The notes: generated by a model from the letters alone, not told the origin. A stretch of DNA of 64,000 nt from Candidatus Latescibacterota bacterium (GCA_965208105.1 OZ242318.1:4320001-4384000), one strand, 5' to 3'; positions 18,004-46,912 are shown, counted from the first letter of the stretch. Program-made: numbers and translations.

Positions 18004-18132
18004 ACGGTGCTCGGAGCATTGGCGAACGATTCGGTGCGACGACCAGCGATTCATCAGGGATTCTACCGGACCATTGACAACGGTTTCGGCGAATTACATA
18101 GTACCGATATCGGTGCCTTATTTTTCCTATAC
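18004..18132 (+). mobile_element. IS91/ISCR-like oriIS end, family B copy 1
   Basis: acggtgctcggagcatt...ttgacaacgg...accgatatcggtgccttatttTTCCTATAC. Confidence 0.8.
18074..18102 (+). promoter_or_regulatory. Outward sigma70-like promoter inside the family B end
   Basis: TTGACA-17-CATAGT, conserved across B copies. Confidence 0.6.
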
Positions 18133-18161
18133 ATCCCCCAACCCACCAGGAGATCGAGGCC

Positions 18162-19634
18162 ATGCTGGAAGTACACAACGCCTTTCCCGTCAACAAAGTC
18201 GACGAAGCGGTCCTGTTTCCATTCGATACCTACAGCATCCCGTTCAGCACCGGGCTGCGGTTGCAGCTGGTGCCGGGAAAGACTCCCTACAACAAGCCCC
18301 CCATCGTACTGCGTACAGGCGAGCCGGGCTCGATCGATGACGAGAAGGTCGTTTTCTACGGCACGGTGATCGATTTCGATGGCGAGCTGCGCATGTGGTA
18401 CCAGGCCAAGAGCAGGCAGGACACGGAAGGGGGCCGCCGCCTGGGTTATGCGGTCAGTCGGGATGGGTACAATTGGGAACGACCGAACCTGGGTTTGATC
18501 GAGTTCAACGGCAACAAAAACAACAACATCGTCGACCTGTTCGACGGCAATCCCTGTCTGACCAGCGCGCCGGTGCTCTACGATCCGGACGACCCCGATC
18601 CCAACCGCCGCTTCAAGATGTGCATCGAGGCCAGCCAGTTCGTCAACAGCCTGGCGGTGGCCTACAGCCCCGACGGCTTGCGCTGGACGGAATCGCCCAA
18701 CAACCCGGTGGGTCCGGCCCAGGAGACTGGTAGCGTGGTCAAACACAACGGCTGTTATTACGTCACCTCCCAGGACGAGCTGGGCTACCACGGATCCCAC
18801 TTCGGCATCACCCGCAAGATGGTCACCTTCGCCTCCTACGACTTCGAGACCTGGACCCAGGCTTCCTGTCTCAGTTTCCGCCGCGACGACGTGCCGCCGC
18901 GGCGCATGGAGCCGCACCACAACATGGCCGAGGAAGCCCATCAGGGCGCGATGTTGCAGAGCCGGGGCAATGTGATCATCGGGTGCTACGACATGTGGCA
19001 CGGCAACCCGATGGGCGAGCAGAACCGCATCGACATGGACCTGGGCCTGGTGGTCTCCAACGATGCCATGCACTATCGCGAGCCGATTCCCGACTTCAAG
19101 TTTATCCCCGCCGCGGTCGAGCTGGAGCAACCCGATGGGATGGGCCGGGCGCTCACCCATGCCCACGGGCCGGCGATGGTCAACCGGGGCGACCGGACCC
19201 TGATGTGGTACGGGATGTTCTTCGGCAGCGACGTGCGCTGCGCCAGCTGGCACCTGGACCGGCTCGGCTGCTTCGAGACCTTCGACGAGATCATCTTCGG
19301 CGAGGGGGAGTTCTTTCCGATCACGCGGCCGAAGCCCCACTTCATAAGCTGCCCCATGCGCGGCGACGGTCCGCAGAAGGTGTTCGCCAATGCCGATCTG
19401 ACCGAGCACTGTCCGGTGACGGTGGAGGTGCTGGGCGAGGGGTTCCATCCGCTGCCGGGGTACTCCGGGGATGCTTGTGTACCGCTGAGCGAGGATGGTT
19501 TCCGGTTGCCGGTGCGCTGGAAGGAAAGGGATGAGCTGCCAGCGGGGGAGACGTTCCGCCTGCAGGTGAACTACGGCAACGGGCTGCGGCCGGAGGATGC
19601 CAAGGTCTACGCGCTGTACGTGGCGAAGGAGTAG
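18162..19634 (+). CDS. Hypothetical beta-propeller glycoside-hydrolase-like protein; paralog of 60044-61558
   Basis: AVLFPFD, YAVSRDG..W, DPDPNRRFKM, DLGLVVS.DAMH. Confidence 0.7.
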   Translation: MLEVHNAFPVNKVDEAVLFPFDTYSIPFSTGLRLQLVPGKTPYNKPPIVLRTGEPGSIDDEKVVFYGTVIDFDGELRMWYQAKSRQDTEGGRRLGYAVSRDGYNWERPNLGLIEFNGNKNNNIVDLFDGNPCLTSAPVLYDPDDPDPNRRFKMCIEASQFVNSLAVAYSPDGLRWTESPNNPVGPAQETGSVVKHNGCYYVTSQDELGYHGSHFGITRKMVTFASYDFETWTQASCLSFRRDDVPPRRMEPHHNMAEEAHQGAMLQSRGNVIIGCYDMWHGNPMGEQNRIDMDLGLVVSNDAMHYREPIPDFKFIPAAVELEQPDGMGRALTHAHGPAMVNRGDRTLMWYGMFFGSDVRCASWHLDRLGCFETFDEIIFGEGEFFPITRPKPHFISCPMRGDGPQKVFANADLTEHCPVTVEVLGEGFHPLPGYSGDACVPLSEDGFRLPVRWKERDELPAGETFRLQVNYGNGLRPEDAKVYALYVAKE

Positions 19635-19706
19635 CGGGCTTTTTCCGGAATAGGACAGGATTGATCGCCCCGGTGCCTGGAGCAATCCGTCGAAAGGAGG
19701 ATCGCC

Positions 19707-21623: not shown

Positions 21624-21631
21624 AGAATCCG

Positions 21632-21690
21632 ATGACTGACTGTGTCTTCTGCGACATCTTGTCAGATAGGACGCCATCGAGCACGGTCGA
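21632..21690 (+). pseudogene. HIT-family N-terminal fragment cut by the element end
   Basis: MTDCVFCDIL...PS reads directly into repeat A3. Confidence 0.65.
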
Positions 21691-21785
21691 AGGACGGGCA
21701 AACGATGCTTCGGGAGCTGCCTGACCCAGGCGGTACGCTCAGCGCCTTGACCGAGAGTCCAAAAAGGTCCCCATTTTACCTATAT
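21678..21785 (+). mobile_element. IS91/ISCR-like oriIS end, family A copy 3
   Basis: cggtcgaaggacgggcaaacgatgc...ttgaccgagagtccaaaaaggtccccattttaCCTATA. Confidence 0.8.
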
Positions 21786-21864: not shown

Positions 21865-23064
21865 GTGTTCGTATTAGAGAGTTCGATACCAAAGCGTCTG
21901 ATGAAGGCGCTGGAAATGAACTACCGAGCCTATAGGCATCGCGAGTGCCGCCGAGCAGGTGGAGAGGTGTGTTCCCGAGGAGGGCTCTCGTGGACTCGGC
22001 AAGAGAATGCAACTGAGCTTTTGTTTCCACGACTCCCAGCAGAGAAAGCAGATGCTGAATTATGCCGATTCCTGAGGGACCAGATACGCGGCAGGTCGTC
22101 GGAGGTGGAAGCAACTCTTGGCACGGAATGCACGCCAAGAGGCATCGTCGCTCACTTGATTTCGGTGGGATTCGAGATTCCGCCAGGTGGAGGAATTCCC
22201 GGGATGGCTGCGAGGATACGGCAGATTCCGAACCGTCCTCCTACGGATGGTATAGTTCTGCAACCGACGCTCGATTCCGAGAGTACTTTTCGCCTTGAGG
22301 CGCGGTCGCGTCAGTCGTTCGTGGGAACGGTGTTGGTCGAGTGCGCCTCCGGAGTTGCGGGTATCTACGACTTGAGGGTGGAAAGTCGCTTCCGCTTGCG
22401 CGGCATCGGATCGCGGTTGATGGAAGGTGCAATGCGCTGGGCTCGAAGGCGTGGCTTCAAGATCGCTGTGCTCGCAGCCAATCCTCTGGCGGCCTCGCTG
22501 TATGCGAGGCTTGGGTTCGGTGAAGTCGGTCGCATCTGGTATTGCAGCCTTTCAAAGGGAGCCCTGTCTAACAAACCAATGAATTCGAGGCAGCGGCGAA
22601 TGGTTGTTGCCTCCTACATGGGTAGACTATCCGAATTGATGAAGATTGCAAAGAGAGAGTCGTTCCGATTCACTACTCCAGTTGGCCTGAACCTCATGCA
22701 AGTTGCGGCCTCTAAACGCCAGATTCGAGTGGGAAGGTGGCTTCTTGAAAGAGGCGTAGCTCTGGATCCCCTCTCAGCCTGGGACCTGGGATGGGGTGAC
22801 CGGTTGCCGGATGTGTGCGCAAATGATCGTGGAGCGATCGATCGAAAAATCTCCGGTATGACGCCGCTACATCAGGCCGTGCTTCGGAGGGACACGAACG
22901 TGGATAGCGATCTGAGCTTGCTCAAGGTGCTTCTGAAAGCCGGGGCGGATACGACCATCACCGATGATGAGTTCAACGCAACAGCACTGGGGTGGGCTAA
23001 AGTGTTTGGCGACGCCGAGGCAGAGGAGCTCCTGTCTGGGGCAGGGGTAAGCAATAACGCTTAG
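21865..23064 (+). CDS. GNAT acetyltransferase fused to ankyrin repeats
   Basis: FRLRGIGSRLM, SLYARLGF; C-terminal TPLHQAV, TALGWA; start uncertain (may be 21901). Confidence 0.75.
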   Translation: MFVLESSIPKRLMKALEMNYRAYRHRECRRAGGEVCSRGGLSWTRQENATELLFPRLPAEKADAELCRFLRDQIRGRSSEVEATLGTECTPRGIVAHLISVGFEIPPGGGIPGMAARIRQIPNRPPTDGIVLQPTLDSESTFRLEARSRQSFVGTVLVECASGVAGIYDLRVESRFRLRGIGSRLMEGAMRWARRRGFKIAVLAANPLAASLYARLGFGEVGRIWYCSLSKGALSNKPMNSRQRRMVVASYMGRLSELMKIAKRESFRFTTPVGLNLMQVAASKRQIRVGRWLLERGVALDPLSAWDLGWGDRLPDVCANDRGAIDRKISGMTPLHQAVLRRDTNVDSDLSLLKVLLKAGADTTITDDEFNATALGWAKVFGDAEAEELLSGAGVSNNA

Positions 23065-23500: not shown

Positions 23501-23770
23501 GCCTCCGCCGAGGGGCCCGCCGCATCCGCAGTTCGAGTTCGTAGCCTGATCTGCCTTCTCGACCCGGCGCCGGGCGTATGGCGAGGTGTGCCCTCAACGC
23601 TCCCTCAGGCCCCGAATTGATCCGGATCCGGGCCGACAGGCAACCAGAATGGACTCCGAGCTCGGTCGAAGGATGGGCAAACGATGCTCCGGGAGCTGCC
23701 TGACCCTGGCGGTACGCTCAGCGCCTTGACCGAGAGTCCAAAAAGGTCCCCATTTTAATTTTACCTATAC
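23501..23770 (+). mobile_element. IS91/ISCR-like end, family A copy 4 (longest; includes the last transposase codons)
   Basis: ccgcagttcgagttcgtagcctga (PQFEFVA*) shared with family B, then the A tail ending in CCTATAC. Confidence 0.85.
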
Positions 23771-23910
23771 TAATGATAACCTTTCACGCCCCCTGAAAAG
23801 AACCGAAGAAACTTGAATGTGGTGCCACGAAGGAGGCAATAAAGATCAGCGTAGGTGAACTGGCCATGTGGTCAATCGTTGAGATCGATATTTAGATTGC
23901 GAAGGAGGCC

Positions 23911-24465
23911 ATGATGATCGAACAGAATCACCTGGACCTTTTACTCGACCTGAACACTGACGAAAACCCTCACAGCGGTGGGGATCTAATAGACCATCTT
24001 CGGGGAACACACGACTTTCTCCAGGCCTGGGGCAACGACCAGGCCGTGTGTCTTGGAGGTTTGTTTCATAGCATCTACGGCACGCAATCCTACAAGACAG
24101 AGTCAGCGTCCCTTGAAGACCGGCAACGCATCCGCGAAGTGATTGGCGAGAGGGCCGAGCGATTGGCTTTTCTCTTCAGCGTTTCGATCCGCAGTGGGTT
24201 TTTCGAAGGGATAGGAAAGGAGGGGGCAACTGTGTGGAACCGTGTTCACGAGGAGGACACACCCATCGCGCAAGCGGATCTTCGCGACCTCATCGAAATG
24301 GAGGTTGCCAACTATCTGGAATTCATGCCGAGATCCCATTTCACGGTTGAGGAACTTGACACGTTCGAGGCCAAAGTTGAGCGAGGAAAGCCCTTTCTCT
24401 CACCCCTGGCCTACGAAGCGATCAAGGCAGGAATCAGATCGAAACGCCTTGCCATAGCCTCGTAG
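23911..24465 (+). CDS. DUF6817-like hypothetical protein
   Basis: HSG..LIDHL.GT...L..WG, GLFHSIYGT, IGERAERLAFLF; RBS AAGGAGG. Confidence 0.75.
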   Translation: MMIEQNHLDLLLDLNTDENPHSGGDLIDHLRGTHDFLQAWGNDQAVCLGGLFHSIYGTQSYKTESASLEDRQRIREVIGERAERLAFLFSVSIRSGFFEGIGKEGATVWNRVHEEDTPIAQADLRDLIEMEVANYLEFMPRSHFTVEELDTFEAKVERGKPFLSPLAYEAIKAGIRSKRLAIAS

Positions 24466-24715
24466 GGAGAGAAGTGACTTCACATAACACGACTGTACCT
24501 GGCTTCGGGCCGCCATGCGCCTTCGCCGAATTCCTTTACAACGGTGCACGGGGCCGGCGGCAACTGTCCGACGGGGAACGGGGCCGCATAAGAGAGCAGT
24601 ATCGGTCTCCCCATATCGGTCCGGGACTCGGAGAGGTTATCGACAACAGTCGTCAGAGCCCGGAGGAGACACTGGCGCTGATCCGTACTTCCTTGGGCGT
24701 GAAGGAGGTGTAAGG

Positions 24716-25654
24716 ATGCTGTCGCAGGCTCAACTGGACGAGTTCAAGGCCGAAGGGGCGGTCCCTGTACCGGGCCTGGTGCCTCCCGATGTGCTGGAGG
24801 GATGGCAGGCTGAGTTCCGCCGCGCCTGCTCCGACGACGGCGTCGACCTCGGCGACCCGGCCACCTGGCCTGCCGGGCGGTATGCGCCCGAGGGCGGGTG
24901 GCCCGAGCTGAGCCCGTGCCTGTACGACCTGCCCGACCTCCAGTCGATCGTGGAGCAGCTTGGCGGCGGCGCTTTCGCTCCCTCCCACCCGGCGGGGCAG
25001 CCGTGGTCGCCGCAGGTGCCGATGACGCGGGTGATCCTGCCGAGCGAGCCGGGCACGGAGTGGACGCCGCCTGTTGACGGCCACCTCGATGGGTACGCGA
25101 CGGGCTGGGGCGGTGGGTTCATGGCGTTCTTCGTGGTGCTGCTGTGGGACGTGAGCAGCCCAAGGGGCGGGGGCACGGCCTGGTGGCCGCGGTCGCACCT
25201 GGCGAACCACCGCTACTTCCTCGAATACCCGGAGCGCTTCGACGGCTCCTATCTTTTCACGGAGCCGGTGCGCAGCGGCGGACACCGGGCGATTCTGGAA
25301 GGGGACCCGCGTGTGGGCGAGGTGGAATGCATGACCGGCCGGGCAGGGGACGCGCTGCTGCTGCACGGCCTCACCACCCACGTCAACTCGGCGAACGAGG
25401 CGGGGTCACGGCAACCGCGGGTGGCGCAGTTCGCGCGCTATTCCCACAGGAAGATGCGCGAGCAGGCGCCGATGGTCATGTTCCCCGACAAGGACGGGAA
25501 GCCATGGTCGCCCCCGCCTCGGGGCAAGGACACGCCCGAAGAGGAAGTGACTGGGACGGGCTTTCTGCCGCCAGATCACCCGGGGCGGAAGTTCGAGCGC
25601 TACGACGTGCCGCGGAACCTCTGGAAGTACTGGGGTCCCGCTCTCAACACCTGA
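24716..25654 (+). CDS. PhyH-like dioxygenase
   Basis: LSQAQLDEFKAEG, GHLDG, GGT..WPRSH, AGDALLLHGLTTH. Confidence 0.8.
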   Translation: MLSQAQLDEFKAEGAVPVPGLVPPDVLEGWQAEFRRACSDDGVDLGDPATWPAGRYAPEGGWPELSPCLYDLPDLQSIVEQLGGGAFAPSHPAGQPWSPQVPMTRVILPSEPGTEWTPPVDGHLDGYATGWGGGFMAFFVVLLWDVSSPRGGGTAWWPRSHLANHRYFLEYPERFDGSYLFTEPVRSGGHRAILEGDPRVGEVECMTGRAGDALLLHGLTTHVNSANEAGSRQPRVAQFARYSHRKMREQAPMVMFPDKDGKPWSPPPRGKDTPEEEVTGTGFLPPDHPGRKFERYDVPRNLWKYWGPALNT

Positions 25655-26672
25655 CTCCTCGCAGCGCAGGCATATCGACCGCGTCGTCGCGGCGCTCGTG
25701 CATGTTCGCTTCCATGGCTTCAGGGTAGCGATGCGGGAGGTGGGAAACCTGGTCGAGCCGGGCGCGGGCATCGTCCGGAAGACAAAAGCTGCCGGCGAGC
25801 ATGTTGTCTCGCGCCTGCTCGACCGTGCGCGCGCCAATGATGACCGAAGTGATGGCCGGTTGTTCCAGCACCCAGCGCAGGGCAACTTGCGCCGGTGAAC
25901 GGCCCATCTCGTCGGCTACCGCCAAGAGCGTCTCCAAGGTCTCGTCGGCATTGGCGGCAAAATAGCTTTGCGGGTAGGCCCAGGCATCCGCGGAACGCGT
26001 GCCCGCTACGGTGCGCTCGCCGGGCTTGTACTTGCCGGAGAGAAAGCCGCCGCCGAGCGGACTCCACACCACCACGCCCAATCCCTTGAGCTGACAGACG
26101 GGAATCAGCTCCTGCTCAATGTCGCGCACGACCAGGCTGTATTGCGGTTGATAGCACTCGAAGCGCGCCAGGCCATTCGCGTCCGATATCCACAACGCCT
26201 CCATCAAACGCCAGGCCTGATAGTTGGAACAGGCGGTATAGCGCACCTTGCCTTGGCGAACCAAATCGTCGAGCGCGCGCAGCATCTCCTCCAACGGGGT
26301 CTGAGTATCCACGTGGTGAATGTAATAGAGGTCGATGTAATCTGTCTGGAGCCGATGGAGACTGTCTTCGACGGCGTTCATAATGCGCACCCGCGACATC
26401 CCCGAGTCGTTGGGACCAGGCCCCATAGGGTTGAAGAACTTGGTGGCAATGACCGCATCGCGGCGGCGGCCCTTGAGCGCCTTGCCGGTGAAGACCTCGG
26501 ACTCGCCGCCGCCATAAGAATCGGCCGTGTCGAAGAAATTGATGCCTGCGTCAAACGCCAGATCGACGATCCGCCGGGACTCCTTCTCGTCGGTGCTGTG
26601 GCCAAAAGTCATAGTGCCCAGGCAAACTTCCGATGCTTTGAGGCCCGTGCGACCCATTCTGCGGTATTCCAT
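25644..26672 (-). CDS. Aldo/keto reductase
   Basis: LGTMTFG, GINFFDTADSY, SLHRLQTDYIDLY, WSPLGGG. Confidence 0.92.
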   Translation of the reverse strand: MEYRRMGRTGLKASEVCLGTMTFGHSTDEKESRRIVDLAFDAGINFFDTADSYGGGESEVFTGKALKGRRRDAVIATKFFNPMGPGPNDSGMSRVRIMNAVEDSLHRLQTDYIDLYYIHHVDTQTPLEEMLRALDDLVRQGKVRYTACSNYQAWRLMEALWISDANGLARFECYQPQYSLVVRDIEQELIPVCQLKGLGVVVWSPLGGGFLSGKYKPGERTVAGTRSADAWAYPQSYFAANADETLETLLAVADEMGRSPAQVALRWVLEQPAITSVIIGARTVEQARDNMLAGSFCLPDDARARLDQVSHLPHRYPEAMEANMHERRDDAVDMPALRGVRC

Positions 26673-26888: not shown

Positions 26889-27161
26889 GCCCCGCCGAGG
26901 GCCCCGCCGCAGCCTCAGTTCGAGTTCATAGCCTGACCTCCTCCGTGATTCGCTCCCTGCGCCGAGAGCCGTACGGCGGAGTGCGCCCTCAAAAACCAGG
27001 TTGACTCCTGAACCGCGCCGAAATCCTTTACAACCGTGCTCGGAGCATTCCGGAACGATTCGGTGCGACGACCAGCGATTCATCAGGGACCCTACCGGAC
27101 CCTTGACAACGGTTTCAGCGAATGGCATGGTACCGATATCGGCGCCTTATTTTTTCTTTAC
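26889..27161 (+). mobile_element. IS91/ISCR-like end, family B copy 2 (transposase last codons plus tail)
   Basis: PPRAPPQPQFEFIA* then the B tail; degenerate terminus ttctttac. Confidence 0.8.
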
Positions 27162-27178: not shown

Positions 27179-27570
27179 ATGATTGCACTGGACACCAACG
27201 TCCTCGTTCGGTTTCTCGTGCGGGACAACGAGGCGCAGGCCGCGGCCGCCGGGACTCTACTGTCTTCGCTGACGGCTGACCAACCCAGGTTTGTCTGCCG
27301 GGAAGTCATTGTCGAGCTCGTCTGGGTCCTGGAACGGGCTTACGGCTTTTCCACGGAACATGTTGCCGGCGTACTGGAGCACCTGGTCTCAACGGACGTA
27401 CTGGTGGTGGAGGCCGCCACCGATGTCGCGCGTGTTGCGTTCGGATACGGGACGGGCAGCGCGGGATTCTCCGACCTGATGATACTGGCTGCCGCCGAAC
27501 GATCGAACGCCCTGCATCAGTAAACTTTCGACCAGAAGGCCGCAAGGCCGGAAGGAGCTACTTTATTACA
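27179..27570 (+). pseudogene. PIN-domain (VapC-like) toxin with a premature stop and no antitoxin
   Basis: MIALDTNVLVRFL, GFSDLMI; TAA at 27521 followed in frame by TFDQKAAR. Confidence 0.75.
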
Positions 27571-28449: not shown

Positions 28450-28606
28450 AGCGGGTCAATTCGTTGTCGTTGAGAGCAAGCACCTGCAAACTCGTCAGGT
28501 TGCCCAGCGAAGAAGGGATGGAACCCGTCAATTCGTTGTGGTCAAGGTTGAGATTTTCAAGGTTGGATAGATCGCCTAATGTCGTAGGGATCGAACCTGA
28601 CAGTGT
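28450..28606 (-). pseudogene. Internal fragment of a plant-type leucine-rich-repeat protein
   Basis: LSGSIPTTLGDLSNLENLNLDHNELTGSIPSSLGNL; only about two repeats. Confidence 0.8.
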
Positions 28607-28611
28607 CATGT

Positions 28612-28703
28612 GAGTCGGTGCGACGACCAGCGATCCATCAGGGATTCTACCGAGCCCTTGACAACGGTTTCAGCGAATGGCATAGTACCGATATCGGTGC
28701 CTT
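28612..28703 (+). mobile_element. Family B end copy 3, terminal motif lost
   Basis: tcggtgcgacgaccagcg...ttgacaacggtttcagcgaatggcatagtaccgatatcggtgcctt. Confidence 0.8.
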
Positions 28704-28762
28704 CGGGGGAGGAGCCCGGGTGACTCGGCTCCTCTACCCACTCTTTGGGTCGAGGCGTTCAA

Positions 28763-32807: not shown

Positions 32808-32893
32808 ATGCGTGCCCCCACCTCTTTAAAGGTCCCGTCCCCGTTGTTCCGGTAGAGAAAATTCTGATGGATGTCATTAGCGACGTAAATGTC
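32808..32893 (-). pseudogene. FG-GAP/CRTAC1-like repeat fragment
   Basis: Minus strand translates DIYVANDIHQNFLYRNNGDGTFKEVG. Confidence 0.7.
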
Positions 32894-33025
32894 TCCTCCC
32901 TGCGCCCATCGGCTGCGGTGGGCGGTGGGTGACCCTGCTGGCGCGGGTGTTTTCCTCCGACCTCAGCGCATGCCCGACCTGTGGCGGGCGCCTGCGGCTT
33001 GTCGCCGCCCTGACCGATCCGGACC
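32893..33025 (+). mobile_element. IS91-like transposase internal remnant (no ori tail)
   Basis: TLLARVFSSDLSACPTCGGRLRLVAALTDP. Confidence 0.8.
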
Positions 33026-35531: not shown

Positions 35532-35662
35532 GCGGCGGACCGCGCTTCGAGCGCTCCTACCTGCGCCCATCGGCTTCGGTAGGCGACCTTGCTGGCGCAG
35601 GTGTTTTCCTTCGACCTCAGCGCATGCGCGACCTGTGGCGGGCGCCTGCGGCTTGTCGCCGC
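35532..35662 (+). mobile_element. IS91-like transposase remnant
   Basis: ggaccgcgcttcgagcgctcc...LAQVFSFDLSACATCGGRLRLVAA. Confidence 0.8.
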
Positions 35663-35771
35663 GGTGCAGTGGTGCTTTATTGTGAAAACGCGCCCGGGTC
35701 TGCTGCCCTCGCCGGGCCCGGGCTGTCCATCAGGTTATCGATCAACCGATTCACTTAGGAGGACCGGACCG

Positions 35772-36660: not shown

Positions 36661-36686
36661 TACAACGGTGCTTGGAGCATTCCGGA
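36661..36686 (+). repeat. 26-bp sliver of the family B tail
   Basis: tacaacggtgcttggagcattccgga, also present in B4 near 40177. Confidence 0.65.
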
Positions 36687-36708
36687 CTGATATCGAAAGG
36701 AAAATCCT

Positions 36709-37791: not shown

Positions 37792-37936
37792 CGCAGATCC
37801 CAATCATGGGAAGGCGCCATGATCAGGCACTGGACTGTCGCTGCCTTGATGACCGCACCAGAAACCGCAAGATGGTGCTGATGCGGTAGGCGGGGTAGAG
37901 CTCCCCGGCATTGGCTCAGAGCGATCCGGCAATCAA

Positions 37937-38473
37937 ATGCGAAAGGTCTCGATAATCGGCTGTGGCGGTACGGGGAAGTCTACCCTGGCCGTCGAACTGG
38001 GATCCCTGCTGAATCTGCCGGTCATTCACCTCGATTCCGTTTACTGGGGACCCGACTGGAAAAGGCCCCCGCCGGAGGAATGGCAACGCCGGCATCGGGA
38101 GCTTCTCGCACGCGAATCCTGGATAATGGACGGCAACTACGGCGGCACGATGAAGGAACGGATAGCCGCCAGCGACACGGTAATCCTGCTGGCCCTGTCT
38201 CGTTTCACCTGTCTTTTCCGGGTAATCAAACGGGGGTTAAAGGGCAGGGGACGCAGTCGTCCGGACCTGCATCCTGGCTGCATTGAGAAGCTGCCGGATC
38301 GCGAATTCCTCGAGTGGATCTGGGATTATCCGAAGACGCGTTTGCCAGGCGTATTGCAGCTGCTGGAAGGGGTCATGCACGAAAAGAGGGTCGTGATCAT
38401 GCGGTCCAATGCCGATGTGGCCAGGTTCCTTGACACTCTGGAGATGGGCAGAACGCAGGGTTCAACCCGATAG
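37937..38473 (+). CDS. P-loop kinase, DNA topology modulation protein (FlaR-like)
   Basis: IIGCGGTGKST, HLD..YW, WIMDGNY. Confidence 0.85.
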   Translation: MRKVSIIGCGGTGKSTLAVELGSLLNLPVIHLDSVYWGPDWKRPPPEEWQRRHRELLARESWIMDGNYGGTMKERIAASDTVILLALSRFTCLFRVIKRGLKGRGRSRPDLHPGCIEKLPDREFLEWIWDYPKTRLPGVLQLLEGVMHEKRVVIMRSNADVARFLDTLEMGRTQGSTR

Positions 38474-38529
38474 AACAGTCACGGCACCACAGTTCTCTGC
38501 CCGTTGCCGCGTCGGTCAGTACTGGCTGG

Positions 38530-38586
38530 GCGCAGGATATTTTGCGCATACAGTTGATAATGGCGCATATACGAGCTATATTGCGT
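38530..38586 (+). promoter_or_regulatory. Fic promoter with GCGCA..TGCG inverted repeats
   Basis: TTGATA(38554)-17-TATATT; gcgca-N8-tgcgc and gcgca-N14-tgcgt. Confidence 0.55.
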
Positions 38587-38618
38587 ATATCCTTAGTTTG
38601 GGCAAAATCGAGGACACG

Positions 38619-40022
38619 ATGGCAAGGCGCATCAGGGAAGAGGACCTGCAGGCGATCGAGGAAGTCGTGCGGCCGTACCCGGAGGGCCGGACCGCACGGC
38701 AGATCGGTGATGCCCTGGCCTCGGCGCCGGCCCGCCGAACCCTGCAGTACCGCCTGAAGTCCCTCGTCGACGGCGGTCGCCTGATCATGGAGGGCAAGGG
38801 CCGCTGGGCGAGCTACCGCACCCCCCGGCGGATCTCGGAGGCGGCTCAGCCGGTCGCTTTCAGCTTTGCTACAGGCGTTGCCCGGGGGGAAGTCATACCT
38901 CCGCTGTCCGAAGCCGCGGCCGAGATCCGTGAGCATGTCCGCCAGCCGCTGGAAGCACGTCAGCCGGTCGGCTATGACCGCGCGTTCCTGGATTCGTACC
39001 GGCCCGGAGAAACCTTCTATCTATCGGAGGCGGAACGAGAACACCTTCGAGAAGTGGGCACGCCGAAGGTCCCCGGGCAGCCCGCGGGCACCTACGCCAG
39101 GCGGATCCTGAACAGACTGCTGATCGATCTTTCCTGGAATTCAAGCCGGCTGGAGGGGAACACCTATTCCCTGCTCGACACAACGCGTCTGCTCGAAATA
39201 GGGGAAGAAGCGGAAGGCAAGGAGCGACTCGAAGCGCTGATGATCCTCAACCACAAGGACGCCATCGAGTTCCTGGTCGATGGGGCAGAGGAAATCGGCT
39301 TCAATCGCTATACCCTTCTTAACCTTCACGCGCTGTTGGCGGACAACCTGCTGGCCGACCCGGAGGCGACGGGGCGTCTCAGGCATATCGGCGTGGGTAT
39401 CGCGGGCTCGGTCTTTCATCCGCTGGAGATGCCGCCACTCATCCAGGAATGCTTCGACCAGGTTCTTGCGGCGGCCTCGGCGATCCGCGACCACTTTGAG
39501 CAAGCCTTCTTCGCAATGGTGCAGATTCCCTACTTGCAGCCCTTCGATGATGTCAACAAGCGCGTGTCTCGACTCGCTGCCAACATTCCACTGTTCAAGG
39601 GGAATCTGTCGCCGCTGTCCTTCGAGGACGTGCCTCGCGACCTGTATACCGAAGCCATACTCGGAGTGTACGAGCTGAAACGCATCGAACTGCTGCGCGA
39701 CGTGTTCCTCTGGGCATATGGCCGCTCGGCCGCCCGTTACGCCGCAGTCAGGCAGTCCCTTGGCGAGCCCGATCCATTCCGGATGAGGCACCGCACGGAG
39801 CTGCGCGAGATCGTTGGCGCCGTCGTTCGCGGGCGCATGGACATGAAGCAGGCCGCCGCCCACATCAGCTCCTGGACACAGGAGCACATCGATGCGCGGG
39901 ATGGGGAACGGTTTCGCGAGATTGCCGAGCGCGAACTTCTGAGCCTGCACAAGAGGAACTGCGCTCGCTATCGGGTCACCCCGTCCGAATTCGAGGCATG
40001 GCAGGAAGTCTGGAGGGAGTAG
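38619..40022 (+). CDS. Fic family protein with N-terminal winged HTH
   Basis: RRTLQYRL; SSRLEGNT; Fic motif variant QPFDDVNKRVSR. Confidence 0.9.
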   Translation: MARRIREEDLQAIEEVVRPYPEGRTARQIGDALASAPARRTLQYRLKSLVDGGRLIMEGKGRWASYRTPRRISEAAQPVAFSFATGVARGEVIPPLSEAAAEIREHVRQPLEARQPVGYDRAFLDSYRPGETFYLSEAEREHLREVGTPKVPGQPAGTYARRILNRLLIDLSWNSSRLEGNTYSLLDTTRLLEIGEEAEGKERLEALMILNHKDAIEFLVDGAEEIGFNRYTLLNLHALLADNLLADPEATGRLRHIGVGIAGSVFHPLEMPPLIQECFDQVLAAASAIRDHFEQAFFAMVQIPYLQPFDDVNKRVSRLAANIPLFKGNLSPLSFEDVPRDLYTEAILGVYELKRIELLRDVFLWAYGRSAARYAAVRQSLGEPDPFRMRHRTELREIVGAVVRGRMDMKQAAAHISSWTQEHIDARDGERFREIAERELLSLHKRNCARYRVTPSEFEAWQEVWRE

Positions 40023-40309
40023 GGCTGCCGGCGGTGCCCGCGCCGAGGGCCCCGCCGCAGCCGCAGTTCGAGTTCGTAGCCTGACCTCCTCCGCTATTCG
40101 CTCCCTGCGCCGAGAGCCGTACGGGGGAGTGCGCCCTCGAGTACAAGATTGACCCCTGAAACGCGCCGAAATCCTTTACAACGGTGCTTGGAGCATTCCG
40201 GAACGATTCGGTGCGACGACCAGCGAGCCATCAGGGACCCTACCGGACCCTTGACAACGGTTTCAGCGAATGGCATAGTACCGATATCGGTGCCTTATTT
40301 TTCCTATAC
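40011..40309 (+). mobile_element. IS91/ISCR-like end, family B copy 4
   Basis: EGVGLPAVPAPRAPPQPQFEFVA* plus tail; TTGACA(40251)-17-CATAGT; ends in TTCCTATAC. Confidence 0.85.
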
Positions 40310-40310
40310 A

Positions 40311-40875
40311 TCTCAGAGGCCTTTGCATGCACGAATACTCCGAAGTCTCATTCCATCCGTGGGTTGGGAGGGACTGTCTGCAAAGCCGATTCGGGTCCGT
40401 GTGCTAGTATTGGGTGAGTCTCACTACGGCGGGGATGATGTACCTCCGGACTTTACGTCGAAGGTCGTGGAAACTGGGACAAGAAACCCGTTACCCTTTC
40501 TTTACGGTCATTACCAAGATTCTTCTTGGAAACACAGGCTGGATCACCAATGAGGATCGCGCAGGTGTATGGGAAGACGTGGCGTTCTACAACTTCGTGC
40601 AGGACTTCGTAGGGAATCAGCCGAGAAACCGGCCGACCTTTCGCCAGTGGGTTGATGCTCAGGAGCCCTTCGAGACGGTGCTAGCAGCGCTTCGACCCCA
40701 TGCGGTGCTCATCCTTGGATCTGATTTGGCGGACCATATGCTGTTCCTCAATAGCGAACGGCAGTCCATTCGATATGGGCGACAGGAGGCCGAGGCTGTA
40801 GCCGGCATCATTCAACACCCCTCAGGGCCCATGAGATACAGCGAGGGTATACCGGCCTTCGAGAACCGGCTGTGA
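40311..40875 (+). pseudogene. Frameshifted hypothetical (UDG-like fold) gene
   Basis: VLVLGESHY in one frame, WEDVAFYNFVQ..RPT..HPS in another. Confidence 0.6.
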
Positions 40876-40944
40876 AGGGCTCGGGAACTAGGCGGGCCGT
40901 GACAGGCGCAGCCCTATGGCGACGCAACAGGAGTTAATTGGGAC

Positions 40945-41748
40945 GTGGAATTTGTCCGGTATGTGATTGCTTTCTTCCTCATTGGATGGGGCGGGTCGAT
41001 CATTGGGACCATCCTCTTTGTGGCCGTCTCTCCTTTTGTAGGAGCGCTTCGAAATACGAATCCGGGGCGAGCACTAACAGCTGTCACGAACGGAGCTGGC
41101 GTTCTTGGGGCGATCTATGCCTTTACCGTGATCTGCAGTTGGACAGGGGGCGAGGCTAAGCTCAGCATGTTGGCGCTTCCTCTGTTGCTGACGCTGAAGA
41201 ACATCATCTGGCGGATCAGGAGGGCCCAAGTGGCGGATTCGGTCCCGGGACTGGTACTGTCCGGTGACCGGGACTTGCGGTCCGGGGTGGTAAGAACGGA
41301 ACGGATGAACTTGATGGCAGATGTGATGGCCTTCGCCTTAGGCGTCTTCATAGTTGGCATTCCGAACGGTGGCCCAGATCTCTCGGTGAAGAGACTTGTC
41401 GCGCGGTGTGTCCAGGAGCCAATGGTGGTTGTCCAGGATTACTACAGTCGGCCGCACGTCGGCCCGGGGGTGTTGTCGCGGGTTCCAGTCAGTCAAGTCC
41501 TAGAAACGGCCCGTCGGAACAGAATGGTGGAATTGAGTGAGCTGTCCGGTGAGCACCGAGTGCTTGTCGAGGCACGTATGGAGGAGCTTGCTCGGTGGAT
41601 AGACATGAACACCACCGTTACGGCCAAAGGGCCCGCTGGACCGTTAGCCGAAGTCGGTGGGGGAGTGACAACCGTGGAGCTGCCTGACTCCGAGGCAGTG
41701 AACTCAAAGGCAAGGGCCCTCTGTGTCGAGCTATTTGAGACTTGGTAG
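40945..41748 (+). CDS. Hypothetical membrane protein
   Basis: 267-aa ORF with about four hydrophobic segments. Confidence 0.5.
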   Translation: MEFVRYVIAFFLIGWGGSIIGTILFVAVSPFVGALRNTNPGRALTAVTNGAGVLGAIYAFTVICSWTGGEAKLSMLALPLLLTLKNIIWRIRRAQVADSVPGLVLSGDRDLRSGVVRTERMNLMADVMAFALGVFIVGIPNGGPDLSVKRLVARCVQEPMVVVQDYYSRPHVGPGVLSRVPVSQVLETARRNRMVELSELSGEHRVLVEARMEELARWIDMNTTVTAKGPAGPLAEVGGGVTTVELPDSEAVNSKARALCVELFETW

Positions 41749-41959
41749 TGGGGACGGCGAGTGGTCGTACTAGCGGTGGGTCCGAGGCCGGAGTTGCACG
41801 GAAACCGGCGAGCGGGTGGCGCTGACCGAGCGGCAGATGGTGCAGCTGGGCTTCGGCGGCCACTCCTCCTGCGAGCCGCTGGACCTGCCGGAGAAAGCGG
41901 CCGACCTTCTGGCCCAGGTGTTCCCCCTTCTACTTCCCCATCTGGGAGCTGGACCGCTC

Positions 41960-42310
41960 ATGAATCGCACCTTCCCAGTTGACCTGCAGACCCACACGAC
42001 CTTCTCGGACGGCAGGGACACGCCGGAAGAGCTGGTCTCCAAGGCGGCGGCCTCCGGCATCCGCGTGCTCGCCGTGACGGACCACGACAGCGTTCAGGGC
42101 GTGGCTGCGGCCAGGGCCGCCGGCGCGAAGGCGGGTGTGCACGTACTCCCGGCCATCGAGCTGAGCACGGCCAAAGAGGAGGATCGTGAATGACCGAGAC
42201 CATCGAGAAGCCGGACCTCGGGTACAGGTAGGGGTTCGCCACAAGCGAGCTGGATGCGATGTCAAAGTGCCTGGAGGTGCACGGCTTCGCCATCATCAAG
42301 GAGGTGTGCT
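41960..42310 (+). pseudogene. Truncated PHP-domain gene joined to a PhyH-like N-terminal fragment
   Basis: DLQTHTTFSDG, AVTDHD, ELST then a break; LEVHGFAIIKEV with an internal stop upstream. Confidence 0.65.
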
Positions 42311-42764
42311 GTCGAGGATAGGACGGATAGGGGTTATCCGTCGTTAGTCGATGTCCTACAGTGAAGGCGTTTCGGGGCTTTCGCGGGGGCGGACGGGGTG
42401 GAAGTGCTAGAGTTTGAGGGGGTTAAGCGGAGGGCGGGAGGACCTGCGGAGCCGCACGTGGAGTGGTCTGGCCTGGAACGGCGGCGTCGCCCACCGATCG
42501 CAGCGGTAGAGCGCCGCGCCGGGCTGGCCGCCGGCGAGCGAGGACGGGGTCTGGCTAGGACGTCTCGGTGGCCGACGGCTGGCTAGGCCGCCTCGTCGAG
42601 TGGAGCTGTCGGTCGAGGCGGGCTGGAGAGAAGCGCTCACGCGCCGGCAGACCGACGCCGGGAATACCTCTTGAATGGTTAGCGTCTCAATCTGGGCCTT
42701 CCCCCTCACCTTTCCGAACGATTCGTCTCCTGCCCTCGATCGCGAAATCCCAGCAAGGTGAAAC

Positions 42765-44435
42765 ATGACGACGAAATTCCTTAAGCATTTTCCAAAGCCG
42801 TTGCTTGATGATCTTGTCGCCTGTCGCTGGCTTCCAATTGTTGGAGCCGGATTGTCGAAAAATGCTGATCTCCCCTCAGCGACCATGCCGCTTTGGGCTG
42901 AGCTTGGTAGGAATCTCGCCATGGACATGCAAGATTATGAATATGTCTATCCCATTGATGCTATTTCGGCTTACGCGCATGAGTTCGGTCGTCCAAAACT
43001 CATCGAAAAGTTGTCCGATCTGCTACTCATAGGTGAGGCTCGCCCAGGCAAAACACACCGTGCATTCTGCTCCATCCAATTCGATATCGTTTGCACCACC
43101 AATCTGGACTTCCTCCTTGAGAGGCAGTACGAGCGCGCCCTCAAGTCTTGCACGCCCCTCATTGGTGAAGATCAGCTGTCCATCAAGCTGCAGGAATCAA
43201 GCGTGGCGCTATTGAAGCTGCATGGAGACCTCAACCACCCAGACCGCTTAGTTGCCACTGAAGAAGATTACGACACCTTTCTTGAGCGCTATCCTAGCGT
43301 CGCGACATATCTCGCCAACCTCCTCATCACCCGAACAGCTGTCTTGATCGGATACAGTTTGGATGATCCAGACTTCCGTCAAGTGTGGCAAGTCGTCGGA
43401 GAACGACTTGGTAAGGCACGACGGATGGCCTACGCACTATGTGTTGGCGCGCGGCCTGCGGACGTGACACGGTTCGAACGTCGGGGGGTAAAGGTCATAA
43501 ATTTGCCTGGAAAGAAGAGCAAGTATGGAGAGATTCTCTCTGAAGCCTTTGGCGAGCTAAAGAACTATTGGCAGGAACAGATCGTACCCGAGAGTCGGGT
43601 TATAGAAGAAGAGCCATTGCAAGAGCTTTCGCTTCCAAGAGGCTCTGCTACTAGGCTTTGCTTCTTTGCGCTCCCCCTATCGGCGCACCCATTCTATCGT
43701 ATGCGGGTGTTCCCACTAGTGCGAGAGGTAGGGCTCGTCCCTGTGACCGCAGATGAAGTCATCTCTCCGGGCGAAAGTGTCGTCGCGAAAGTAGAAGCTC
43801 TAATCTCTCGAGCGTCTTTCGTCGTTGTCGATGCGTCTAGCGAGTTCACATTGGCTGAAGCTCGCATGGCGCTTGGGCAAAATGAGCCAGGTAGGCTTTG
43901 CGTAATCATTGAAGAAGGTGCCCCCATTCCCGTTGAGATCCAGCGCCCCGAAATCCTTCGCGAGTCAGATTTGGCATCAGAGGAAGACGCACTTGTTCCC
44001 ATTGAGCGCCAGCGTATTAAGGTCCTCAGCAGGCCTGATCTTGTGTCCGTGGAAGTTGGACAATTCCTTCGCGATTTGGAAGAGTGGCTTCGAGAAGCGG
44101 TGGGCGGACTGAAGCCGAGGCTATCTGGAGAAACGCGGCGTCTCTTTCACGCCCGAGAGTACAGGGCAGCGGTCATTTCAGCGATTACGAATCTCGAGAC
44201 GGTATTGAGGGAGCGGCTTGATGTGCCAATCAGCAGAGGCAGAAAGTTCATATCTCTGCGAGAAATGCTCGATACCGCTGATAAAAAAGGTTTGCTTGGA
44301 AAGTATAGAGCCGCCCAAGTCTCGCAATGGCTGAAGATTCGTAATTATGTGGTGCACGGCCATGGATCTGTATCCGAAAAAGCTGCGCGGGAGATTGTAC
44401 GCGGAGTCGAGGAGATTCTGGGCCCTACTGCGTAG
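42765..44435 (+). CDS. SIR2-like domain protein with TIR/NDT-like middle and HEPN-like C-terminus (defence candidate)
   Basis: IVGAGLS, TTNLD, KLHGD, IGYSLDDPD; CFFALP..ADE..ISRASFVVVDAS; RNYVVH. Confidence 0.8.
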   Translation: MTTKFLKHFPKPLLDDLVACRWLPIVGAGLSKNADLPSATMPLWAELGRNLAMDMQDYEYVYPIDAISAYAHEFGRPKLIEKLSDLLLIGEARPGKTHRAFCSIQFDIVCTTNLDFLLERQYERALKSCTPLIGEDQLSIKLQESSVALLKLHGDLNHPDRLVATEEDYDTFLERYPSVATYLANLLITRTAVLIGYSLDDPDFRQVWQVVGERLGKARRMAYALCVGARPADVTRFERRGVKVINLPGKKSKYGEILSEAFGELKNYWQEQIVPESRVIEEEPLQELSLPRGSATRLCFFALPLSAHPFYRMRVFPLVREVGLVPVTADEVISPGESVVAKVEALISRASFVVVDASSEFTLAEARMALGQNEPGRLCVIIEEGAPIPVEIQRPEILRESDLASEEDALVPIERQRIKVLSRPDLVSVEVGQFLRDLEEWLREAVGGLKPRLSGETRRLFHAREYRAAVISAITNLETVLRERLDVPISRGRKFISLREMLDTADKKGLLGKYRAAQVSQWLKIRNYVVHGHGSVSEKAAREIVRGVEEILGPTA

Positions 44436-44547
44436 ATAAGCGAGCCCATACTTTTGTAGGACATGTGGATCGATACATTCCACCGCCGGCACTGACCATA
44501 GCGCGACATCCACCGCTTGTTCTTTCTTCCCGTATCGTTGCGGCCGG

Positions 44548-44715
44548 CGGGGCGCGGAAATCGAGCCGGACCGTCGCACCTTCGAGGTCAAGCGCGCCTC
44601 GGAGTTGATTCTCCAAGTATCGTTCGTAGTGGGCCGGGACGCCATCCGGCCAGCTGGTGTACACGGCAATTTTTAGCGGCTTGGTTTCAACCTGGGTAGC
44701 GTAATAGAAGCGCAC
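44548..44715 (-). pseudogene. der: C-terminal KH-like fragment of ribosome GTPase Der/EngA
   Basis: RFYYATQVETKP......YERYLENQLR..LDLEG..VRLDFR. Confidence 0.75.
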
Positions 44716-45411
44716 CGGCCCCTGGTGACTGCGCCTCCATGGTGGCGCGCTGAGCCTCCAAGGGCCTTGACCACGCCGGGTCGAGCTACGGTCGTGGTGA
44801 GCCAGCCCTTATCGACTCCGCCCGCCTTCGCGGTGCCAACGCTCGCCAGCCAAGAATCGGGGGCTTCCGTCCTCACGCCAACGTTTCCGGGTATTTCTGC
44901 GCTCTGATCCCCCGTACTCGTCCTCGAATCGCCCAAGCCCGCAGGCCATTGTGATGGCTCCTTACCTCCACGCGCTACAACGATCAGGCCGCCTCAGGTG
45001 ACTCACCAAGTCATGGAAGCCGGTCGCTTTCCCGCAGATACGTCGCCATCCCTTCTTGCAGAGACGCATGGAGCTGGAGGAGAATACCCAAGCGACCGTA
45101 GAGTTGCCGAAGCTGGACTATCGGTTCGTCCGTGTCTTCGTCGTCTTCCAGGGCCAATCCGAGCAAACCAACGGCCGTCAATAACTGGCCTGGAAGTCCA
45201 GATATCGTTCGAGCGCATCGTATTGTCTGGCACGCTCGACCAACCAATCGTAGTCCAGTTACGGCCCTGCCTGACTGGCTTGCGCTACGCACCACGCAGC
45301 CCTGGAAACCTCCGGGGGACTCAACCCGAAATCCAGACTAAAGCTGGTACAGGGGGCGTCCCGCGTTGCATTTCGATCAGCACCTGCAAATGCGTTCCCG
45401 ATCTTATCTCG

Positions 45412-45868
45412 CGCTTCGAGCGCTCCTCCCTGCGCCCATCGCCTGGGGTGGGTGGCCCTGCTCGCCCCCATGTTTGCCACCGACCTCAGCGCCTGCCCGG
45501 CCGGCCTGTGGCGGTCGCCTGAGGATCATCGCTGCTCTGACCGATCCAGCCTCGGTTCGGACCTATTTGGAGGGCGTAGGGCTGCCGGCGGTGCCCCCGC
45601 CGAGGGCCCCGCCTCAACCCCAGTTCGAGTTCGCCGCCTGACCTCCTCCGCGATTCGCTCCCTGCTCCGAGCGCCGTACGGCGGAGTGCGCCCTCAAGTA
45701 CCAGATTGACCCCTGAAACGCGCCGAAATCCTTTACAACGGTGCTCGGAGCATTGGCGAACGATTGGGTGCGACGACCAGCGATTCATCAGGGACATCCT
45801 ACCGGACCCTTGACAACGGTTTCAGCGAATGGCACAGTACCGATATCGGTGCCTTATTTTTCCTATAC
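45412..45868 (+). mobile_element. IS91/ISCR-like end, family B copy 5 (about 75 transposase codons plus tail)
   Basis: CGGRLRIIAALTDPASVRTYLEGVGLPAVPPPRAPPQPQFEFAA*; ends in TTCCTATAC. Confidence 0.88.
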
Positions 45869-46104
45869 ATCGTGCCGGTGGCGAACCAATTCGTATGCGA
45901 CGAACTTATCATACGCTGGCTAAGAGAGACCAACGTCCTGCGAGTTGTGGAGTCAATCGACAAGGGTCTGGTGCAAGCGACATTCGACCCACAGATCATC
46001 GAAGGATGAACCTGATGGTTCGCCTGCGAGCCTTGATCTTTGACATTGAATGTGTTAATCGCCGGTATGGTGCCGGCGTGTTAACCTCAAACAAGGAGGT
46101 GCAA

Positions 46105-46422
46105 ATGCACCGAGTTGTCCTCCTGCTTGGGACGTTCCTTATTGGGGCCACCGTAGGGACTGATATTCCTTGGGCCGATAAGGACACCACCAAGCAGGAG
46201 CTATCTAGACCCAAGTGGCCGAAGGGTAAGACAGTCGAAGAGCGACTGACGATCCTTGAGGCCAGGGTCAACGCAGTGGAAGAGGGGATATGGGAGGCAA
46301 CCGGGTTGATAGATAAACAGGATCGCAAGATCGTGGATGCTATCAACAAGGCCTCTCTCAGAATTGAGATTAATACTGAGGCTATACAGCGGCTAGTGCA
46401 AATCGTGGACAGGTATCACTAA
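46105..46422 (+). CDS. Small putatively secreted coiled-coil protein
   Basis: RBS AAGGAGGT, hydrophobic N-terminus, heptad-like C-terminus. Confidence 0.55.
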   Translation: MHRVVLLLGTFLIGATVGTDIPWADKDTTKQELSRPKWPKGKTVEERLTILEARVNAVEEGIWEATGLIDKQDRKIVDAINKASLRIEINTEAIQRLVQIVDRYH

Positions 46423-46450
46423 AACCTGAGGGGTAGGGCTGAGGAGTCGA

Positions 46451-46912
46451 CGGCGTCGGACCGTCCTTCGAGCGCTCCTCCCTGCGCCCATCGGCTGCGG
46501 TGAGCGACCCTGCTGGAGCGGGTGTTTTCCTCCGACCTCAGCGCATGCGCGACCTGTGGCGGGCGCCTGCGGATCGTCGCCGCCCTGATCGATCCGGCCT
46601 CGATCCGGACCTATCTAGAGGGGGTAGGGCTGCCGGAGGTAACCCCGCCGAGGGCCTAGCCCGCAACCGCAGTTCGAGTTCGCCGCCTGACCTCCTCCGC
46701 GATTCGCTCCCGGCGCCGAGAGCCGTACGGTGGAGTGCGCCCTCAAATACCAGGTTGACTCCTGAACCGCGCCGAAATCCTTTTCAACGGTGCTCGGAGC
46801 ATTGGCGAACGATTCGGTGCGACGACCAGCGATTTATCAGGGACCCTACCGGACCCTTGACAACGGTTTAAGCGAATGGCATAGTACCGATATCGCCTTA
46901 TTTTTCTTATAC
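46451..46912 (+). mobile_element. IS91/ISCR-like end, family B copy 6
   Basis: Direct repeat of 45412-45868 with indels; ends in ttcttatac. Confidence 0.88.

Follow-up and report, generated by a model that had tools for sequence, protein, structure and literature searches.

ISCR1 carries a 232-bp oriIS region with two outward promoters, PCR1-1 and PCR1-2 (POUT), demonstrated by reporter fusions, and the genes downstream are co-oriented with these promoters, as PMC6218425 describes. In the IS91 family the oriIS has subterminal palindromes (PMC13181058). In the ISCR28 'sandwich' a gene is flanked by two oriIS copies, the upstream one belonging to a remnant ISCR, an arrangement that is said in PMC12772301 to permit capture of the gene between them. 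Here we analyse a 64,000-nt stretch of a Candidatus Latescibacterota bacterium (the window; + denotes the strand shown), in which repeated tails of two families, A and B, precede varied genes, together with a related genome, the 5.9-Mb metagenome-assembled Candidatus Latescibacterota chromosome OZ244619.1. An original prediction, drawn from the window sequence alone, had cited the outward promoters of the ISCR1 oriIS, which the reporter fusions above confirm, and had proposed that each end acts as a portable promoter for the module that follows it. We found that the tails are the remains of IS91/ISCR-type elements and that the B tails carry a promoter-like sequence pointing out of the element; an outward promoter is, in our judgement, probably the best explanation of the locus as a whole.

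The B tail is the non-coding stretch of about 225 nt that follows a transposase stop codon. The transposase open reading frame (ORF) ends ...QFEFVA-stop, and in-frame reading of the repeat copy D6 (40036–40087) places the stop of the B4 copy at 40082–40084, leaving a tail of 225 nt. B5 and B6 are preceded by a further repeat whose translation shows a CxxC and then RLRI(V/I)AALTDP...YLEGVGLP, like a transposase C-terminus. An ORF directly upstream of one OZ244619.1 tail matches Pfam Y2_Tnp (PF04986; E = 2.2e-17), and a search for longer relatives of this ORF returned 1250 proteins, the best of which have 476–480 residues and both PF14319 and PF04986. The identity of these full-length relatives is 81–93%. 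One of them, P0007 (476 residues, 87% identical to the remnant), served as tblastn query and itself shares about 40% identity, across 91% of its length, with proteins annotated 'IS91 family transposase' on at least 5000 plasmid records. With P0007 as query, only C-terminal pieces (residues 281–476) were found in the window and the OZ244619.1 loci; six lie in the window (E 1e-11 to 1e-26), and the remnants directly upstream of tails are the last 30–195 residues of the 476-residue transposase. None of the 76 window ORFs matches PF14319 or PF04986, and an intact transposase gene is therefore absent from this set. The four short remnant ORFs gave no Pfam match at E up to 10, the two matches returned being to unrelated domains of longer downstream genes; the family became apparent with the longer OZ244619.1 remnant described above. 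The retention of ori tails while the transposase decays, also part of the original prediction, agrees with this picture.

The ends of the elements are sharply defined on one side only. Family B terminates in TTTTTCCTATAC and family A in TTTTACCTATAC or a close variant. The shared end motif TTTTNCCTRTAC matches nine times in the window, always on + and never on −, with its last C at 5119, 11188, 18132, 21785, 23770 and 57155 among others; the B2 end at 27161 has two mismatches to it, and all four window matches of the A core motif are also on +. A plasmid ISCR element (L012) ends in ...CTTCCTATAC about 230 nt after its transposase stop, and the B tail shares with it both the terminal TTCCTATAC motif and the tail length. 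At the DNA level, a blastn search of B tails against plasmids gave no match. The B palindrome GTACCGATATCGGTGC is subterminal, 16 nt before the last base, and the palindrome of family A is imperfect, its loop being A-rich; in the divergent A5 another stem, GGCC, occupies this place. On the right, the boundary is exact in all 18 tails with an intact end, and each of them abuts different, unrelated DNA. On the left, the 14 aligned remnants each break off at a codon of their own, apart from one orthologous pair with a common cut. The transposase remnants, the exact right ends and the varied left cuts together identify the tails as ori-side ends of 5′-truncated IS91/ISCR-type elements of two subfamilies, which for the B tails we regard as nearly certain. 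The traits of such elements are present: a transposase whose full-length relatives carry PF14319 and PF04986, and an ori end with a terminal motif and a subterminal palindrome, without terminal inverted repeats. A constant ori end with varied 5′ cuts fits rolling-circle or one-ended transposition, and also plain deletions.

Elements of this family have a CTTG, GTTC or GTCC target tetranucleotide against the ori end and make no target-site duplication. The bases that follow CCTATA at the 18 intact B ends are CATC in nine, CATT in three, CATA in two, CATG in one, CGTC in one and GTGC in two; the CATN seen in 15 of the 18 may be conserved bases of the element or a different target preference. One junction reads CAT followed directly by CTTG. 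The A ends read CTTC, CTTC, TGTA, CTAA and CTTA.

Other identities for the repeat were considered. A single mini-element with a fixed left end is ruled out by the different cuts in the 14 aligned remnants, the one orthologous pair excepted. An integron cassette array, which would have a tyrosine-recombinase integrase and attC sites of 60–140 nt between its cassettes, was rejected as well, although attC structure itself was not modelled: none of the 76 window ORFs matches an integrase family, and what separates the modules (1–11 kb, often with several genes) is 300–480 nt long and made up of a transposase 3′ end with its tail. Rfam gave no match at gathering score over the whole window, so the repeat is not a known RNA, and a tRNA scan of the window was also empty.

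For wider comparison, one genome per species was searched with a 28-letter B-tail pattern; all 11 loci obtained, L003, L004, L006, L007, L008 and L011 among them, came from OZ244619.1. By BLAST they hold 13 distinct B tails, all on +, of which 11 cluster within 39 kb and the other two are 1.8 Mb distant. With the six of the window these make a set of 19 tails, eight of which were found without the 28-nt pattern (the unbiased copies).

Within the B tails, TTGACA-N17-CAYRGT matches six times in the window, all on + (18074, 27103, 28658, 40251, 45810 and 46857), whereas dinucleotide shuffles of the window gave a mean of 0.01 matches and none of 100 reached six. The −10 hexamer is CATAGT in four tails, CATGGT in one and CACAGT in one. 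TG stands one base 5′ of it in five of the six, B1 (18074) having TT instead, and the last base of the −10 lies 30 nt from the final C of the CCTATAC terminus (40279 and 40309, for instance). The original prediction had described the hexamers and their two variants, the extended −10 in five tails and a distance of about 30 bp to the terminus, and it was accurate on all of these points. A repeat search that did not use the motif recovers the same six copies (families D1 and D2), which are about 90% identical across 130–300 nt by alignment. The six sites belong to a single repeat, so that finding the motif six times counts as one event inherited from one ancestor and not as six.

We scored promoter candidates by their matches, out of 12, to the sigma-70 consensus, which may not be the consensus of this host. 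Four window B tails score 10/12 (three with TG, and B1 without) and two score 9/12, both with TG; the spacer of 17 nt is the optimal length. Both strands of the window together hold 10 sites of at least 10/12, four of them in B tails, compared with 2.9 ± 1.7 in block shuffles. By hand calculation the chance of one such site per 300 nt is about 0.007 per strand, which is unlikely but not extraordinary. In B2, B4 and B5, scanned at a threshold of at least 8/12, the TTGACA-17-CAYRGT site is the sole candidate. Outward promoter function of the B tails is a plausible prediction. Some points speak against it. The sigma-70-like sites outside the B tails are barely enriched, six against 2.9 expected for the whole window. 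Latescibacterota are usually placed near Bacteroidota, whose promoters differ, and their consensus may not be of the sigma-70 type used here. A scan for the Bacteroidota-type TAnnTTTG gave only 10 sites (8 on +, 2 on −) and was uninformative; these sites show no link to gene starts in the window.

We then asked how well the promoter positions are kept. In all 19 tails the −35 hexamer and positions A2 and T6 of the −10 show no change, and the four changes found in the −10 all fall at the less critical positions 1, 3, 4 and 5. The hairpin stem, unlike these promoter-critical positions, is altered in 5 of the 19 by manual count. When a conservation mask of eight positions (the −35 hexamer plus −10 A2 and T6) was slid along the part of the 19 tails outside the block used for fishing copies, it met zero changes at one of 43 placements, which is the real register, and TTGACA is the sole invariant 6-mer of the 66 outside that block. 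The unbiased copies are less selective: in these eight the mask is invariant at 5 of 71 placements, the promoter register being one, and an upstream block starting GGTGCGACGACCA is equally invariant. Variable columns number 4 of 12 in the hexamers and 31 of 59 elsewhere, a difference that is not significant. Furthermore, the tails share one ancestor and are about 93% alike, so their invariance carries limited weight. The promoter-critical positions are among the best conserved of the tail, although in the unbiased copies other positions are kept as well. A block of 17 nt, GGTGCGACGACCAGCGA, is found at 40210–40226 and at the same place in all B tails, 25–41 nt upstream of the −35; it is unchanged in seven of the eight tails found without using the block as bait.

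These observations bear on a rival account, in which TTGACA...CATAGT belongs to the transposition machinery of the ori end, for example as transposase-binding repeats beside the palindrome, and only resembles a promoter. By manual reading TTGACA falls within a direct repeat with two copies per tail, CCTT(T/G)ACAACGGT, and family A also has CCTTGAC, immediately 5′ of its palindrome, so that a putative transposase-binding site is possible; the upstream block of 13–17 nt, being as invariant as the promoter, points the same way. However, in remnants that have no transposase gene and whose hairpins are decaying, the sigma-70 contact positions have stayed fixed while −10 positions 1, 3, 4 and 5 drift; the spacer has the optimal 17 nt, and there is a TG extension. 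The plasmid ISCR tail L012 lacks CCTTGAC, which is therefore not a general ori requirement. The same account would ascribe the orientation of neighbouring genes to the building of the array or to strand-specific insertion, not to selection for expression.

The first credible gene after each of the 11 A and B ends of the window lies on +, the ORF after B6 being doubtful; for the six B tails alone, the downstream + gene is clear in five and doubtful in one. ORFs were accepted as coding by a Pfam match or by their GC content at the three codon positions (GC1/2/3), and the strand baseline was the Pfam-supported genes of the window, 27 on + and 13 on − (27/40). Against this baseline the window co-orientation has p = 0.013; a baseline that leaves out the six Pfam-supported first genes lowers this to 0.005. 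The two genomes together offer 21 distinct contexts, ten of them in OZ244619.1 only, and 19 are followed by a + gene, one by a − gene (L011) and one by an unclear sequence (L004), which gives p = 0.016 with the 27/40 baseline and 0.004 with the reduced one. In eight window cases the distance from end to start codon is 18–140 nt. The co-orientation bias is real but modest.

Other observations bear on what this bias says about the B promoter. The L011 tail has − strand ORFs after it, and the L004 tail an unclear low-GC stretch. The best promoter candidate in the A tails scores 8/12, in just two of the five, yet a + gene follows all five; hence the co-orientation cannot be credited to the B promoter alone. 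All 10 intact ends of the window are on the same strand, as are all 13 tails of OZ244619.1, including the two 1.8 Mb from the cluster, and since the A tails are co-oriented too, array growth or an insertion strand preference could contribute. The IS91 intermediate is a single-stranded circle of one particular strand, according to PMC13181058, and a strand bias might follow from this. The GC skew of 6-kb loci (−0.04 to +0.02) is uninformative on a replication-strand explanation and gave no usable replication signal either way. Finally, genes 35589 and 36709 are adjacent in the window with a 31-nt tail fragment between them, where OZ244619.1 has two full tail-plus-module units. Both genes keep their place without the promoter-bearing part, so the tail is dispensable for both. 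Taken with the repeats and the conserved upstream block, the shared strand of the ends and the co-orientation at A tails give the transposition-machinery account some weight, but we consider it unlikely.

The claims about gene layout in the original prediction can be judged on the same data. The start codons that it placed closely after the ends on + exist, and the downstream ORFs are coding by Pfam or GC1/2/3; genes elsewhere do lie on both strands, as the 27/13 split shows; and the binomial tally over the window and the OZ244619.1 loci, 19 of 21 on +, departs modestly from the baseline. Its portable-promoter interpretation stands in part: the identity of the ends as ori ends is upheld, but the co-orientation is not specific to the B promoter, as the A tails show, and the tail is not needed at 35589 and 36709.

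With these points in mind, we propose the following working model for an outward promoter in the B tail. Like ISCR1, the ancestral element would have had a strong promoter facing outward from the tail on its ori side, and the transposase gene was presumably lost while the tails stayed. The predicted sigma-70-type promoter, TTGACA-17-(TGn)CATAGT, would point out of the element from about 30 nt inside its end. Its transcripts would start inside the palindrome, some 7 nt downstream of the −10 with about 22 nt left to the end, and would read into whatever adjoins, as those of the ISCR1 POUT promoters do. The weak hairpin and T-run lying over the start site would stop transcripts arriving from upstream, but not those begun inside the hairpin, and each tail could then be a stop-and-restart mark between co-oriented modules. 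A co-oriented gene within about 20–140 nt is probably driven by the tail, or has its expression augmented by it. We infer that the promoter fires in this organism and that its neighbours depend on it; on the sequence evidence, the chance that the B-tail promoter is active and used appears to us slightly better than even.

The hairpin has also to be considered on its own, as the functional part may be a hairpin-plus-T-run terminator of the transposase gene, now serving the upstream module, with the hexamers incidental. GTACCGATATCGGTGC followed by CTTATTTTTC did score as terminator-like at 40278–40293 and 45837–45852. However, the stem has just six pairs, one of them G-T, and is broken in 5 of the 19 copies; the fold of the last 88 nt is no better than shuffles (z = −1.6 on +, −0.5 on −); and terminator-like sites occur at the chance level in a scanned stretch of 9 kb (nine against 7.6 expected). 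Folds of the last 86–88 nt of three tails (four strands) likewise gave z of −0.5 to −2.0, with no strong structure beyond the short hairpin. We regard the terminator account as very improbable. Another view accepts the promoter but assigns it the native job of driving the transposase across the ori-ter junction of a circle, so that any effect on neighbours is a by-product. This would account for a strong promoter in the ancestral element, and junction promoters exist in other IS families. IS91 circles do have an oriIS-terIS junction (PMC13181058), but a separate promoter is present in the terIS region of ISCR1, ISCR2 and ISCR8 (PMC13393415), and promoter-critical bases left intact in dead remnants are not explained by a role in the circle. 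We consider this view improbable, though less so than the terminator account.

Table 1. Tails, transposase remnants and selected adjoining genes in the window.
Feature	Position	Strand	Remarks
Transposase remnant, P0007 residues 293–373	2423..2680	+	no tail; tblastn E 2.5e-18
A1 tail	4975..5119	+	TTGACC, imperfect palindrome, end TTTCACCTATAC; then gene 5166–5978 (+)
A2 tail	10987..11188	+	then gene 11224–12048 (+)
B1, 5′-truncated tail (last ~129 nt)	18004..18132	+	−35 18074–18079, −10 18097–18102, without TG; orthologous to L003 2972–3103
ORF after B1	18162–19634	+	GC1/2/3 0.61/0.42/0.86, coding; overlapping − ORF not coding
A3 tail	21678..21785	+	then gene 21865–23064 (+)
A4, last transposase codons and A tail	23501..23770	+	then DUF6817 gene 23911–24465 (+)
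B2, last transposase codons and full tail	26890..27161	+	−35 27103, −10 CATGGT 27126–27131
PIN-domain (VapC-like) gene, complete	27179–27523	+	starts 18 nt after B2 end
B3, tail cut on both sides	28612..28703	+	promoter 28658–28686 and hairpin kept; without terminal ~30 nt bearing CCTATAC
Transposase remnant, residues 406–446	32892..33021	+	no tail; L007 ortholog continues into B tail
Transposase remnant, residues 399–443	35532..35666	+	fused to start of gene 35589–36614; tblastn; OZ244619.1 counterpart has tail and ~480 nt extra
B-tail fragment, 31 nt (D7)	36661..36691	+	without promoter or end; between genes 35589–36614 and 36709–37791
B4, last ~25 transposase codons and 225-nt tail	40009..40309	+	−35 40251–40256, TG, −10 40274–40279; hairpin 40278–40293, then T-run; CCTATAC end 40303–40309
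B5, transposase remnant (residues ~404–476, frame broken) and full tail	45410..45868	+	−35 45810, −10 CACAGT 45833–45838
B6, transposase remnant (residues ~396–476) and tail	46437..46912	+	−35 46857, −10 46880–46885; hairpin broken by 3-nt deletion
ORF after B6	46962–47594		doubtful
Transposase remnant, residues 379–429	50155..50307	+	no tail; right edge of 12.5-kb segment absent from OZ244619.1
A5, divergent A-like end	57105..57155 (left limit approximate)	+	TTGACA, GGCC hairpin, TTTTTCCTGTAC; then gene 57258–58448 (+)

The features of the window are collected in Table 1. The PIN-domain gene has no antitoxin ORF upstream of it because the B2 tail occupies that place. B3 is followed by a DDE-transposase C-terminal fragment and then by an ORF on + (28893–30401). 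This DDE_Tnp_1_4 fragment adjoins B3 in the window (28603–28896) and recurs in OZ244619.1 (L006 3548–3796; L011 3703–3740), and two OZ244619.1 tails, G3690 and G5471, share an atypical end, CCTATAGTGC, and the same flank.

The two genomes are closely related, shared genes being 96–99% identical, but gene order and content differ. The DUF6817 module (23812–25666) lies 45 nt after an A tail in the window and directly against a B end in OZ244619.1. The OZ244619.1 units at the place of genes 35589 and 36709 include a histidyl-tRNA synthetase gene, absent from the window, whose start lies 63 nt after a B tail end (L008 1515–1578), within the variable array. A stretch of 12.5 kb (37820–50294) with three B tails is missing between the same flanking genes in OZ244619.1, which there lie about 240 nt apart (L008 4406 and 4644). 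It carries a ThsA-like SIR2 protein (42765–44435; PADLOC E = 3e-26), a SoFic/PDC-S04-like Fic protein (38409–40022) and a segment of 45% GC (47977–49835) with a pentapeptide and an ion-channel gene. Conversely, OZ244619.1 is longer at two places. At window position 16849 it has an extra 1465 nt (L003), in which a gene fragment and a transposase remnant are accompanied by an A tail and a small module; at window position ~19685 it has about 415 nt extra. Both borders of the 1465-nt indel were read; they are not at an ori end and show no direct repeat, and the indel is no help in telling transposition from deletion.

The array might be a working cassette system, in which an intact copy elsewhere in the genome, such as that of P0007, would provide transposase in trans for cuts at one ori end after another, and modules flanked by two ends would be excised, reinserted and reordered, each arriving with its own terminator-plus-promoter tail, in an integron-like shuffling based on a rolling-circle transposase. 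The different order and content of modules in 97%-identical genomes, and the DUF6817 gene at a B end in one and an A end in the other, bear on this idea. However, several of the breakpoints fall within remnants or at a distance from the ends, which shows ordinary recombination and deletion at work, and we think the cassette idea quite doubtful.

Two further observations concern other parts of the window. A direct repeat of 98 nt, 95% identical between its copies (53643–53740 and 56935–57032) and unrelated to the A and B tails, lies upstream of + genes: gene 53844 in one case, and the A5 end with gene 57258 in the other. At 3018–5084 there are three long overlapping ORFs, none with a Pfam match; the longest (688 residues) has a non-coding GC pattern (0.89/0.66/0.51) and is therefore probably a shadow frame.

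If the B-tail promoter fires, dead IS91/ISCR ends would, in an uncultured phylum, wire how ordinary genes of the chromosome are expressed, beyond the resistance genes of clinical plasmids, and the genes so wired in OZ244619.1 would include that for histidyl-tRNA synthetase. It would also be a candidate strong promoter for the lineage; to our knowledge, no promoter has been defined so far in Latescibacterota. A dense one-way array that differs between near-identical genomes is, moreover, a recombination hotspot, and may be of use for studying the rolling-circle assembly of gene clusters outside the clinic. A literature search returned no paper naming both Latescibacter and IS91.

The locus can be set beside the described systems as follows. 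Like ISCR1 (PMC6218425), the B elements have about 230 nt of non-coding DNA that separate the ori end from the transposase stop, an outward sigma-70-type promoter inside the tail (here predicted from sequence) and variable co-oriented genes downstream; both traits of POUT, a complete outward −35/−10 near the end and downstream genes in the same orientation, are found here. The ISCR1 promoters read TAAACG-N17-TAAGAT and TTCGGA-N18-TTTATA, whereas the B tail has one predicted promoter, much nearer to consensus and with TG. There are other differences from ISCR1: the transposase shares only about 40% identity with IS91-family proteins of plasmids, the elements reside in a Latescibacterota-like chromosome and not in a class 1 integron, and the downstream genes are ordinary metabolic, unknown or defence-like genes and not resistance genes. 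With IS91, IS801 and IS1294 (PMC13181058) the elements share a HUH transposase that combines a zinc-binding N-terminal domain with Y2_Tnp, subterminal palindromes at oriIS, a constant ori end joined to variable DNA and, presumably, ori and ter ends that are distinct. They differ from them in that the canonical CTTG or GTTC tetranucleotide is not seen directly after CCTATA at the 18 intact B ori ends, where the bases may belong to the element, and in being 5′-truncated and not extended past the ter end. As in the ISCR28 sandwich described in PMC12772301, modules are bracketed by directly repeated ori ends, but the window has no intact transposase gene and up to 11 successive ori ends. ISEcp1, IS1999 and ISKpn23, as listed in PMC6218425, likewise have a complete −35/−10 near one end that reads into a neighbouring gene; those elements belong to other transposase families with inverted repeats, whereas here the carrier is a one-ended rolling-circle remnant. 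The arrangement is of the ISCR1 POUT type; a distant family member carries it in a candidate phylum, where the dead ends are repeated in a one-way array.

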